NCBI GenBank assembly: GCA_964016885.1 | Contig: OZ024745.1 | Location: 68,944,001-69,008,000 of the forward strand | DNA length: 64,000 bases | Direction of reading: 5' to 3' | Source of the DNA: Eledone cirrhosa | Lineage: Eukaryota | Part shown: in pieces, positions 1 through 52,083 of the stretch | Numbering within the stretch: position 1 is the first letter of the stretch | Layout of the letters: each line of letters opens with the position of its first letter | Made by a program: the position numbers and the translations under genes | Notes under the pieces: generated by a model | Database searches by the model: none | Told to the model about the DNA's origin: nothing | The model's input: only the letters and a program-made list of their open reading frames with translations

Positions 1-619
1 TTTGTTGACATTACTGAAGGTTGATGTTTACACTGAAACATCAACTGAAATCCTGTTGTGTAAAAAAATAGAAATTAAAGCTGCTCATATCCTTTTGATT
101 CGATCACCATCATGGGATAAATGGAAATATGTTATTCAGTTTGACTAGAAGGTACTTGAGTATCATCGTCCTCCTTTTATGTTCACTTTCTATGATGATA
201 TGGGTTGGATGATCTAAGACTCAACAAGTCAGAGAGACATTATCTTGCTCATACATTCCATATTTTAGCACCTATTACTAATATAATGAGCAGTTTGAAA
301 TAGGGTCTACATTTCACATCTGTCCGGGGTTAATTATCAGTTTGTACAGGCCTGGTCATGGCTGGAATGCCTTTGATTATAAGTCTACTTCATTCAAGTC
401 TGACCTGGAGCAAAACTACAATATTCCTCATGTCTCTACAAATGTGGTTTAACCCTGACCACATTACTAGCTTAAAACCACATAAACAAATTTGACAAAC
501 AGTTTTAGTATTAACAGTACCAAGAAGAACTGATATATAGTTGACACTATTTAGTTTCAGTGAAGTAGTAGCAGAGACTAATTTTCTTTCGGCTTCAAAA
601 GAACTACAAGAGAGAAAAC

Positions 620-1881: not shown

Positions 1882-2064
1882 CAATACAGTGCCCCTACAA
1901 CTCTATCAGGAGTTATGAGTCCATACATGCATACAATCTCTTATTAATATTAGAGTAATGGGTATTATATTTTATGTATAATCTCCACCACTCTAATTTT
2001 AATAAGACATTGTATGCATGTATGGTCCCTTAACTCCTGATAGAGTTGTAGGGGTGCCGTATTG
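1882..2064. repeat. Inverted repeat, 88-bp arms, 7-nt loop
   Basis: CCCCTACAACTCTATCAGGAGTTA...CCATACATGCATACAAT pairs with ATTGTATGCATGTATGG...TAACTCCTGATAGAGTTGTAGGGG; about 12 mismatches by manual alignment; loop 1970-1976. Confidence 0.95.
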
Positions 2065-27050: not shown

Positions 27051-28633
27051 TTAAACATTTTCTTCATAAAGTAATTGGACTTGGGTGATTAATTACAATA
27101 GAAATTTAAAAGCTATTTTGTAAAGTCTAATAGCAAAATGAAACTGAATTTATAATGCCATTTGCATTGTTATTTCAGTTTCAATTAATTCAAAGAATTT
27201 AGGAATATCAAATAGATTTTTCCTTCTTAATTCTATTGCAGATTACAATAAAACGCAAGTGTTCTAAGGCCATTTTTCCTGCTAAAGTTGAGGTTAGCCT
27301 TGTAAGCCCAATGACAGTCTTCATATGCATGAGATCTTTTTGATGCAATGTTTTATAGGTATGTGGCCCAGTGGTTATGCTGTCACACTTCGAATCATAA
27401 TATTGTAATTTGAATCTCACACTGGTAAATATGTTTTGTTCCTGAGCAAGATACTCCAGTTCACTCAACTGAAAACAACATATATACCAGCAGCTGCTGG
27501 AAGTTAAGACAAAGTTTTTTCATGATAGGACCAGGCCCCTAACATTAAAACGTGCATGAAACCTTGTAGAAGGCTAACTAAACCTAACTAAAAGTGTAGA
27601 ATATAACAACCTCCTGGTGCCAAACTTTTAGTTACCTATTAGGATGTGTAGAAATACGGTTAACGTTTAGTTACCTATTAGGATTTGTAGAAATATATTG
27701 GATACACACTGTAGATTATTATCTTCATCACTTTATGTCTACTTTCCACAATGTCATGGATTGCATGGGTTACCAAAGTCTGAGACCAGATGGATTGGAG
27801 CGACCTCATCATGCATTTTACAGCTGGATGTCCTTCCTAACACCAACCACTTTACAGAGTATATTGGGCGTGTTTTCTCATGTCACCACCACTACCACTT
27901 TACAAAGTGTGTTGGGTGCATATTATTGTGGCATTAGCACTAGTGAGGTAACAGCTCTCTGAACTTCATCCACCCTGTTCTCACTCTAGCTACAACATTT
28001 TAAGTAAATATACCTTCACTGTTCTTGAGGACTCCTAGATAGCAAAGGCTTTCAACTACTGCAAGCAAACTATCAGAACATTTGAGAGATTTCATTTACT
28101 GAGTACTCTTCCTGTTGACTACTCCTGTACACCTGTCACATATGAGGTCTACCTTCTCTGTCCACCTATCAGTGATCATTCTACATCTAGTGTGCAGCCA
28201 CTGTCCTCATTGAGCTTTACAGGACCTAGGTAATATTTATAAAAAAATCTAATGCTATATTGTAAATCATAACAGGTGCAAGCATGGTTGTGGGGTTTAA
28301 AGAATTTGCTTTGCAAACATATAGTTTCAGGTTCAGTCCCATTTCATGGCATCTTGAGCAAGTGTCATTTAATATAACTTTGTAAGTGATATTTGGTAGA
28401 CAGAAATACTGTGTATATATACACACAATATGGTCCTCCTTTCGCAGTAGGGTCTATACCGTAGTTAGAACTCATTAGAATGTAATTCAGTGAGATCCTG
28501 TGATTGGTTCCATTGGATATTAGGTATGTAAATTATAGGTTTGTATTATTTAGTACTTTTTTAACAATGATAACAAAGAATGAGATATGTAAAATAACTT
28601 GCCTTTGTTATCATTGTTAAAATAACTACTATG

Positions 28634-28635
<2 letters not shown>

Positions 28636-28681
<46 letters not shown>

Positions 28682-29330
28682 CGGAAAAGATTGTTTTGGT
28701 AAAAAGAGGAGTAAGTAGGAGAAAGCTCTCAACAATCGTTGTTTTTAGTTACGATGGAGAATTTTATAAAAATAACAAAATAAGATGCTGAGGTTACATA
28801 TATCGTTTAATCATTATAATTATTTCCACGGTGCTCCATGCAATCTAGATGTCCTTCATGCATTTGTTGTTGATTATAGGAACGGTATCCTCAGATGAAA
28901 TCTGATATGTTTGATATGTCGCTGGCAGGAAAAACACACGTCCTATTGCTTGTGTGCCCAGCAGACATATGAGTTCCCTGAAGGGTTTGCCCGCCGTCAT
29001 GTTTGCTAGAAAAAGCTATCAACGTCTAGCAAACACGACTGCGGGCAAACCCTTCAGGGAACTCATATGTCTGCTGGGCACACAAGCAATAGGACGTGTG
29101 TTTTTCCTGCCAGCGACATATCAAACATATCAGATTTCATCTGAGGATACCGTTCCTATAATCAACAACAAATCCATGAAGGACATCTAGATTGCATGGA
29201 GAACTGTGGAAATAATTATAATGATTAAATGATATATGTAACCTCAGCATCTTATTTTGTTATATATATATATATATATTATATATATTTATATATTATA
29301 TATATATTATATACATATATATATTTATAT
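28636..29330. mobile_element. (TA)n-flanked palindromic element: arms 28772-29010 and 29025-29263 (239 bp), 14-nt loop, 94-bp extension on the left arm
   Basis: About 6 mismatches between arms by manual alignment; (TA)n at 28636-28677 and from 29261; same architecture as 51373-52079. Confidence 0.85.
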
Positions 29331-29648
29331 GGAGGCACATGGCTTAGTGGTTAGAGCATTGGCCTTGCAATCAAAAGGTTGTGAGTTCAATTCTCAGACC
29401 GGGTGATGTGTTGTTTCCTTGAGCAAGACACTTTATTTCACATTGCTCCAGTTTACTCAGCTGTAGAAATGAGATGCAAAGTGGTCGCGGAGGTGCCACG
29501 GCAAAAAAGCACCCAGCACTCACTGTAAATGAGGTTGGTGTTAGGAAGAACATCCAGCTGTAGAAAGATCAAGCCAGAATCAGTTCCCGTCCCACCCTTA
29601 CCAGCAGGGAAAAAGCGGACGTAAAATGAAATGATGATGATGATGATA
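29331..29648 (+). mobile_element. Full-length tRNA-derived SINE with RTE-shared 3' tail
   Basis: A box TGGCTTAGTGG, B box GAGTTCAATTC, CCTTGAGCAAGACACTT body, tail CCCACCCTTACCAGCAGGGAAAAAGCGGACGTAAAATGA(TGA)n matching the RTE 3' end at 61669-61730. Confidence 0.9.
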
Positions 29649-29727
29649 TAGGTCTGTGTGTGTGTATATATATGTAAAATGCATCCAGTGCTGTTTGAAT
29701 TGTTGTTTCACTTTCAATTAACTTTGA

Positions 29728-43455: not shown

Positions 43456-43730
43456 TTTTTATGAAAATTACATCATCTTCATAATCATCATCATCATCAT
43501 TTTATGTTGTCTTTCCATGCTGACATTGGTTATATGCGTTATGATAGTCCAAGTCAGTTTTTATTCAAAGCTACAGCCCTCCTAGATGTGTTCATGTCAC
43601 TCAATGCATCTAGGCAGGCTGTAGCTTTGAATAAAAACTAACTTGGACTATCACAACACATACAACCAATGTCAGCAGGGAAAGGGAACATAAAATGATG
43701 ATTATGAAGATGATGTAATTCTCATAAAAA
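43456..43730. repeat. Inverted duplication, ~130-bp arms, ~10-nt loop
   Basis: GATAGTCCAAGTCAGTTTTTATTCAAAGCTACAGCC pairs with GGCTGTAGCTTTGAATAAAAACTAACTTGGACTATC; arms include (ATC)n and the SINE tail. Confidence 0.95.
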
Positions 43731-51372: not shown

Positions 51373-51432
<60 letters not shown>

Positions 51433-51644
51433 CGTTTCTGAATTTGTTTAGCAAGATTCTTTATCTGAAATCGTGTGTTGAAACCGATATTGTTATACTT
51501 TGGGAGGGTCATGTTGTCAATAAGAAACACACGCACCAGTTGCTTTCACTTCAATTTATTATATATTTATAAATTTATAAATTTATAAGTCTATAAATTT
51601 CTGGTTGGTTGGTTGGTTCCACAACCAGATAGTTGTTTATATAT

Positions 51645-51689
51645 AGTCATAGTTCTTTCGTCACACACTATGTGACTTCTTCAGTAACT
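51645..51689 (-). ncRNA. Minimal type I hammerhead ribozyme (left arm)
   Basis: AGTTA-CTGAAGA-A-GTCACA(TAGTG)TGTGAC-GAAAG-AA-CTA-TGACT. Confidence 0.75.
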
Positions 51690-51798
51690 GGGGATTCCTT
51701 TCTTTGTTTCTGTGCCTCTCCTTTGTTCTGTCCTACGCCAAACAAAATGGCGTAGGACAGAACAAAGGAGAGGCACAGAAACAAAGAAAGGAATCCCC

Positions 51799-51843
51799 AG
51801 TCACTGAAGAGGTCACAGAGTGTGTGACGAAAGAACTATGACT
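51799..51843 (+). ncRNA. Minimal type I hammerhead ribozyme (right arm)
   Basis: Stem I AGTCA/TGACT, CTGAAGA 51804-51810, stem II GTCACA/TGTGAC, GAAA 51829-51832, 2-bp stem III, CUA triplet with predicted cut after 51838. Confidence 0.78.
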
Positions 51844-51993
51844 ATATATAAACAACTATCTGGTTGTGGAACCAACCAACCAACCAGAAATTTATAGATT
51901 TATAAATTTATAAATTTATAAATATATAATAAATTGAAGTGAAAGCAACTGGTGCGTGTGTTTCTTATTGGCAACATGACCCTCCCAAAGTAT

Positions 51994-52083
<90 letters not shown>

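Follow-up and report, generated by a model that had tools for sequence, protein, structure and literature searches.

A palindrome in the Eledone cirrhosa genome is very probably a pair of truncated 3' ends of a Hydra-clade Penelope-like retroelement joined head to head

A palindrome lies between simple-repeat tracts at positions 28636–29330 of the stretch of Eledone cirrhosa DNA analyzed here (the window; 64,000 nucleotides, assembly GCA_964016885.1, contig OZ024745.1, positions 68,944,001 to 69,008,000 of the forward strand). Both of its arms are almost certainly the 3' end of a Penelope-like retroelement of the Hydra clade, about 4.15 kb long. The palindrome as a whole is very probably the product of two primings at sites 87 nt apart, which left two 5'-truncated 3' ends of that element head to head in (TA)n. 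The family identity of the arms, the link of their ends to a reverse transcriptase (RT) and a GIY-YIG endonuclease, the two fixed outer ends, the variable inner ends and the TA flanks were observed directly, as described below.

The initial annotation, made from the letters alone, had described arms of 239 bp with about six mismatches, a 14-nt loop, a 94-bp extension on one side and (TA)n at both ends; every part of this layout was found again. The arms (28772–29010 and 29025–29263) pair with 6 mismatches, and the extension occupies 28678–28771 on the left side only; the remaining features are listed in Table 1. By strict palindrome count the extension is 94 nt, but in the family register it is 87 nt, since the arm end is rich in T and blends into the TA run. 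The arm is the second longest among 589 inverted pairs in the window, and its length at 97.5% identity far exceeds chance. Counted from the 3' end of the element, the palindrome consists of family positions 1–346 (minus strand) joined bluntly to positions 332–88 (plus strand), with zero shared bases at the junction 29024/29025. The 14-nt loop is not a spacer; the left arm simply continues there. Six-frame translation of the arms gave no ORF of note, and the copy is non-coding and has decayed since insertion. A target-site duplication was unreadable inside the (TA)n flanks, and no empty site was seen.

Table 1. Features of the palindrome and of related tailed ends
Feature	Position	Strand	Basis or comment
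(AT)21 tract, left part of target microsatellite	28636–28677		sequence
Tailed arm, last 346 nt of the element with its 3' end at 28678; includes the 14-nt loop	28678–29024	−	96% to family majority
87-nt tail separating the two fixed family ends	28678–28764	−	copy comparison
Bulged hairpin box TCTC-stem loop-TT-GAGA-GCT, candidate start signal	28724–28760	−	5 nt beyond tail-less end; putative function
Predicted type I hammerhead motif, left arm; its long stem II has one additional mismatch	28811–28898	−	descriptor match
14-nt loop, surplus length of the left arm	29011–29024 (minus strand)		family positions 333–346
Tail-less arm, covering family positions 332 to 88; its final 7 nt blend into the TA run	29025–29270	+	94% to family majority
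Predicted type I hammerhead motif, right arm	29137–29224	+	descriptor match; cleavage predicted
Degenerate (TA)n tract, right part of target microsatellite	29261–29330		sequence
(CA)n at tailed end	L004, L011, L019, L021, L023, L026, L030, L116, L125, L020		mostly between element and TA run

Other repeats lie close by. An AT-rich small fold-back (28552–28630) stands just left of the TA tract, and its 27-nt arm has one exact match in the genome. A tRNA-derived SINE of very high copy number (29331–29650; depth near one million) begins exactly where the right TA tract ends; it has a weak Rfam tRNA match at 29340–29397, and a similar SINE head adjoins a family copy in L189. No tRNA gene was found by ARAGORN. 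Two older fold-backs, with arms of 88 and 109 nt, are found elsewhere in the window (1882–2064 and 43480–43715).

The initial annotation had called for a genome-wide search for copies. With the left arm as query against 3.0 Gb, this search gave 2079 candidates, the best 40 of which scored at 90–93%, and the repeat is thus multi-copy. Among these best 40 of 2079 candidates, one common outer end adjoins (TA)n or (TG)n, most copies continue past the loop, and most extend into the 3' UTR or the ORF. An autonomous partner, which was also to be looked for, was found physically joined to the same ends in three loci (L031, L035 and L165), where the RT is followed by a C-terminal GIY-YIG endonuclease. 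L035 extends from its tail over 3878 nt that take in both RT and endonuclease, and then flips into an arm whose end lies at position 88, counted from the 3' end; in L031 and L165 the order is inverted arm, direct 5' repeat, ORF, 3' repeat and tail. The family majority line, built from 28 loci, gives a unit 4150 nt long, of which about 1.5 kb is 3' UTR.

A sister Hydra family (L131:4382–7060 and L132:3413–6094) has unbroken ORFs of 893–894 aa at about 99% identity and, judged from these ORFs, is probably young or active. Its protein P0004 (893 aa) is 61% identical to P0001 over 397 residues and had 880 homologues among 7992 scored candidates, those listed being mostly near 700 aa and unnamed. 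A different arrangement was seen in L187:1528–2269 and G000:C1:217.33–217.71 Mb, where family 3' pieces end at 66 on both sides; these pieces are nested in a longer inverted repeat, recur at roughly 50-kb steps and are probably a segmental array.

The Hydra clade has been defined by RWK and DKT in the RT, a CxCX5C linker, a GIY-YIG endonuclease that lacks the CCHH motif, and CxxC and CxH motifs around the conserved E and N; the available text also gives (TA)n targets and an octopus member, Hydra-1_Obim of Octopus bimaculoides (Craig et al. 2021; PMC8557442). The majority ORF of our family reads MRWK, ADKT, YRDD, CNCRNPSNC, GIY-YIG, CDLC and CLH. MRWK and ADKT (DKT from DKG) are present in both the majority and P0004. 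The linker is CNCRNPSNC in the majority and CNCRNPESC in P0004, its third Cys being lost in single decayed copies. Only one Cys lies between the two motifs of GIY-YIG, and CDLC and CLH follow downstream. Of 42 tailed ends, 24 are directly followed by TA and 9 more have (CA)n first; of 15 unselected tail-less ends, 13 are followed by TA. By this motif list, the parent almost certainly belongs to the Hydra clade of Penelope-like elements. The C-terminal endonuclease, the (TA)n targets and a type I hammerhead that lies close to the 3' end and has a minimal stem III likewise agree with the available description of the clade (PMC8557442). A Naiad or Chlamys affiliation was rejected; it would need an endonuclease N-terminal to the RT.

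Pfam gave no RT in any family piece and a GIY-YIG match below its cut-off in 1 of 10 pieces (E 0.0017), and sequence searches of the PDB gave nothing useful. The RT was recognized solely in a fold search with the predicted model of P0004 (pLDDT 81), whose top match was telomerase TERT (E 1.4e-8), followed by other RTs.

Several features set the parent apart from what the available text of PMC8557442 reports. Hydra elements are given there as generally <3 kb, whereas the parent is 4150 nt long with its long 3' UTR and extra linker sequence, and P0004 has 893 aa against about 700 in most homologues. By eye, protein and hammerhead differ from those of Hydra-1_Obim enough to make ours a separate family, and the parent has direct and inverted terminal repeats, whereas Hydra-1_Obim is listed with "no pLTR".

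The absence of a canonical hammerhead core, as the initial annotation had it, proved mistaken. Both arms contain CUGAGGA and GAAA, and their stems I, II and III follow the type I arrangement. The core halves are 61 nt apart, outside the 7–17 nt spacer of Craig et al., and Rfam did not recognize the motif, which accounts for its having been missed; this distance also separates it from the published Hydra hammerheads for which the available text gives a description. In the right arm, stem I is formed by 29137–29140 and 29221–29224, CUGAGGA lies at 29141–29147, the 61-nt stem II region at 29148–29208, GAA at 29209–29211 and the 3-bp stem III at 29212–29219, and the predicted cut follows A29220. 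None of 5000 arm shuffles matched the hammerhead descriptor. In 47 aligned rows, 94% of the hammerhead cells were paired, compared with 21–46% for slid controls; the core positions were constant in 45–47 of the 47 rows, and the cut position was A in 27, T in 20 and never G. Covariation within the family was weak (double changes at 4 of 28 pairs; 64 of 500 shuffles as high), as expected because the copies have decayed. By eye, the sister families have the same build with paired changes, stem I being UCAU/AUGA versus UCAC/GUGA and stem III AUA/UAU versus ACA/UGU. Free folding of the region did not recover the ribozyme fold (z −0.25), which is not the fold of lowest energy (−1.0 versus −18.5 kcal/mol here, −8.8 versus −19.5 kcal/mol in a near-majority copy). 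Rfam gave no hammerhead over 28500–29700, and its microRNA matches in the same interval were discarded as generic hairpins below the gathering score. From motif and pairing, both arms carry a predicted type I hammerhead with an unusually long stem II.

In four copies (L102, L111, L113 and L121) the AT-rich part of the hammerhead around stem III contains later insertions, three of which share a short hairpin end. These insertions account for the apparent cases of inner ends piling up at the hammerhead cut (position 137), and such a pile-up was rejected.

Comparison of the copies showed that two outer ends are fixed, at positions 1 and 88 and thus 87 nt apart, and that the inner junction is free. 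Twelve copies were picked solely by their tailed arm; the partner arm ended at 88 in nine of these, at 93 and 97 in two, at 138 in one and at position 1 in none. From 33 head-to-head junctions we dropped one duplicate, two with complex 5' repeats and ten that were rearranged inside or lacked a resolved outer end. All of the remaining 20 simple two-arm copies, 14 of which had been picked by the tail-less pattern, had one tailed and one tail-less end. Exceptions to this one-tail rule were L187, which ends at 66 on either side, and L083, a member of the 51.4-kb family described below, which is tailed at both ends. In searches with exact patterns, tail-less ends abutting TA numbered 51 and 16, and 58 copies read through. 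The long direct copies L166–L168 also end at 88, with no inverted partner seen in the fetched stretch.

The inner ends of the 20 simple copies ranged from 42 to 2690, and when L035 was included the inner junction points ranged from 42 to 3878 nt. According to the initial annotation, variation of arm ends and loop points among copies would mark a retro-type insertion and constancy a MITE; with fixed outer ends and such variable inner points, the result is of the retro type. In 12 of the 20 copies the tail-less arm extends further inward than the tailed arm, and in three the two arms share no sequence, so that copying of one arm from its partner is excluded unless the overlap was lost through later deletions. 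The palindrome belongs to the other eight, its tailed arm being the longer (346 versus 332). Its arms share eight non-majority bases, which indicates that both come from one source. The 332/346 junction was absent from the best 40 of 2079 candidates and from the other copies examined.

The two kinds of outer end also differed in the adjoining sequence. (CA)n stood directly after 10 of 42 tailed ends (nine by rule and L020 by eye; Table 1) versus none of 15 unselected tail-less ends (Fisher p 0.049). The element RNA reads ACAC at the tailed-end start. The (CA)n could have arisen by telomerase-like repeat copying of ACAC by the RT, or by priming in a (TG)n tract.

We propose that the endonuclease would nick both strands of (TA)n, one nick priming a cDNA at site 1, which would give the tailed arm, and the other a cDNA at site 88, which would give the tail-less arm. 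Each start may be set by a bulged RNA hairpin just downstream. Both cDNAs would stop early, here at 346 and 332, and host end-joining would link them; it would be by chance that two stops so nearly equal gave a neat palindrome. In vitro, a Penelope-like protein (Poseidon) nicks and extends both strands, two internal RNA start sites bracket the tail, and insertion is independent of hammerhead cleavage, according to the available text of Frangieh et al. (2024; PMC11167929). That work concerns Poseidon and not Hydra, and further-reaching tail-less arms might also have been produced by later deletions in the middle of a palindrome.

The same parent could have produced the inversion by fold-back: the first cDNA would have stopped at 346, looped back and copied itself as far as 88. 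The second arm (332 to 88) does lie wholly within the first (346 to 1), the loop is just 14 nt, the arms share their eight private bases, and palindromes at inverted junctions were interpreted as self-priming in the available text of PMC3846280. Yet the junction has no complementary bases, fold-back offers no reason for a stop at 88, which is also the end of the direct copies L166–L168, and the 12 of 20 copies with a further-reaching tail-less arm would be impossible unless later deletions are added. We consider fold-back unlikely. The remaining explanation that concerns the element itself is that of an ordinary fold-back MITE, or of a non-autonomous hairpin unit that moves as one piece, bounded by terminal inverted repeats and flanked by a duplicated TA target. 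The small size, the long inverted arms and the TA flanks would suit such a unit, but the 332/346 junction recurred in none of the best 40 of 2079 candidates, the inner points vary without any uniform length, and the linked protein is an RT with GIY-YIG rather than a transposase. The initial annotation had argued against a MITE with terminal inverted repeats from the asymmetric end, and the argument is borne out, the asymmetry being fixed at 87 nt while the inner junctions vary; a MITE is highly improbable.

Palindromes between simple repeats are a familiar artefact of long reads, and chimeric fold-back reads might have created this one in the assembly; among the pieces listed, none spans the whole stretch. 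Against this, a 106-nt contig from the public run X8 covers 28965–29070, and so spans the loop, with zero differences, and the depth of the loop bin in runs X6–X8 was 19–24, that of a single copy (these runs are from one sample, their platform is unrecorded, and they may be the source of the assembly). Runs X1–X5, with only 5–6% of the words, were left out, and X9 (RAD-seq) does not cover the loop. The six arm differences are also unexpected from a read chimera, three of them being C-to-T at CpG. From the contig across the loop, the single-copy depth and the CpG mismatches we conclude that the palindrome is real and has aged in place; an artefact is hardly credible.

The window contains a second palindrome of this kind, the 51.4-kb element (51373–52083), whose family has two fixed ends, a 57-nt tail, variable junctions and a short canonical hammerhead. 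The initial annotation had seen no sequence similarity between the two palindromes and had regarded them as different families with the same type of insertion, two outward 3' ends in a TA tract. Both points stood. The best blastn match had an E value of 0.49, and the protein of the 51.4-kb partner (L138:630–3734), which has a YVDD RT and a CX4CxxC linker, had no significant match to the Hydra protein (E 0.094). By the motifs in the available text of PMC8557442, the 51.4-kb element appears to be Neptune- or Nematis-like. Its partner belongs to another Penelope-like clade, so stubs of this type are left by two clades. Within the 51.4-kb family, many copies (L082–L100) stop or flip near 311–340, a possible truncation hot spot, although the 316-nt query may bias this.

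Penelope-like insertions with an inverted, 5'-truncated copy and a one-sided tail of 30–40 bp are already described in the available texts of PMC8557442 and PMC3846280. The palindrome resembles these inverted pseudo-LTR insertions in having an inverted 5'-truncated neighbor and an extension at one end only, but its arms are too short to retain any coding part, and the tails are longer: 87 nt here, 97 nt in sister family B and 57 nt in the 51.4-kb family. As in the available account of Poseidon_Ac (PMC11167929), the tail is the stretch between two start sites and both strands are nicked and extended; Poseidon_Ac is of another clade, its starts are located within the ORF in a stem loop rich in AC, and that account, as available, does not mention a bulged hairpin recurring beyond both starts. 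Animal non-LTR retrozymes (bioRxiv 10.64898/2026.07.22.740005) are, in the available text, short non-coding hammerhead units related to Penelope-like terminal repeats and in that respect similar. They are tandem head-to-tail units forming families of their own, whereas the palindrome is a one-off head-to-head truncation of a coding element. A retrozyme was rejected on its head-to-head order, the lack of a tandem unit at the locus and the absence of the junction from the other copies examined.

A predicted bulged hairpin box (N-C-Y-C, upper stem, T-N, G-A-G-N', R-C-T) starts about 4–6 nt beyond each of the fixed ends. Both boxes were found in four of five families (A, C and D by a loose pattern, B by a strict one) and a single box in family E; paired bases covary among the sister families, and the closing pair is T-A, A-T or G-C, depending on the box. 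The boxes are spaced 88 nt apart in the family of the palindrome, whose tail is 87 nt, and 99 nt apart in sister B, whose tail is 97 nt. The strict pattern, which was fitted after the sequences had been seen and which misses the site-1 boxes of A, C, D and E, has a single match in the window, at 28760 in the tail, against 0.03 expected per random 64 kb. The loose pattern was intact in 14 of 29 decayed tailed copies. Among published consensuses, as far as available and by eye, Hydra-2_Amil and Hydra-2_Ajap have the box at their 3' ends, and Hydra-1_Ajap has two at its 5' end; in the Hydra-1_Obim consensus it was not clearly visible.

From their position and recurrence, the boxes likely mark the two starts of reverse transcription. 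A more specific reading, for which we see slightly better than even chances, is that the conserved hairpin pair positions the RT, that box spacing sets tail length, and that a pair of proteins at both (TA)n nicks would use one box each. The site-1 box sits in the 5' leader of the parent, outside the palindrome insertion; to yield the tailed arm, an RNA would therefore have to continue past the terminal repeat and into the leader, which would be the case in a tandem or circular transcript. We found neither such a hairpin box nor twin priming described for Penelope-like elements in the literature within reach, which excluded subscription journals and bioRxiv supplements. If true, the paired-box reading would tie both the tail and the inverted ends to a rule at the sequence level; the literature still describes this part of the Penelope cycle as undefined.

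The palindrome is an ordinary product of a known class of retroelement, and the inverted, tailed layout in (TA)n is already published; what is new is the longer family, the longer tail and the long-stem hammerhead. Such stubs resemble MITEs or microRNA hairpins, and caution is warranted in their annotation. The insertion cycle of Penelope-like RTs, the sister group of telomerase, has not been worked out, and the palindrome is a readout of that mechanism. With two fixed ends, each beside a conserved predicted hairpin, and a genome that also encodes an intact sister-family protein, it can be tested directly how the tail and the inverted ends arise.
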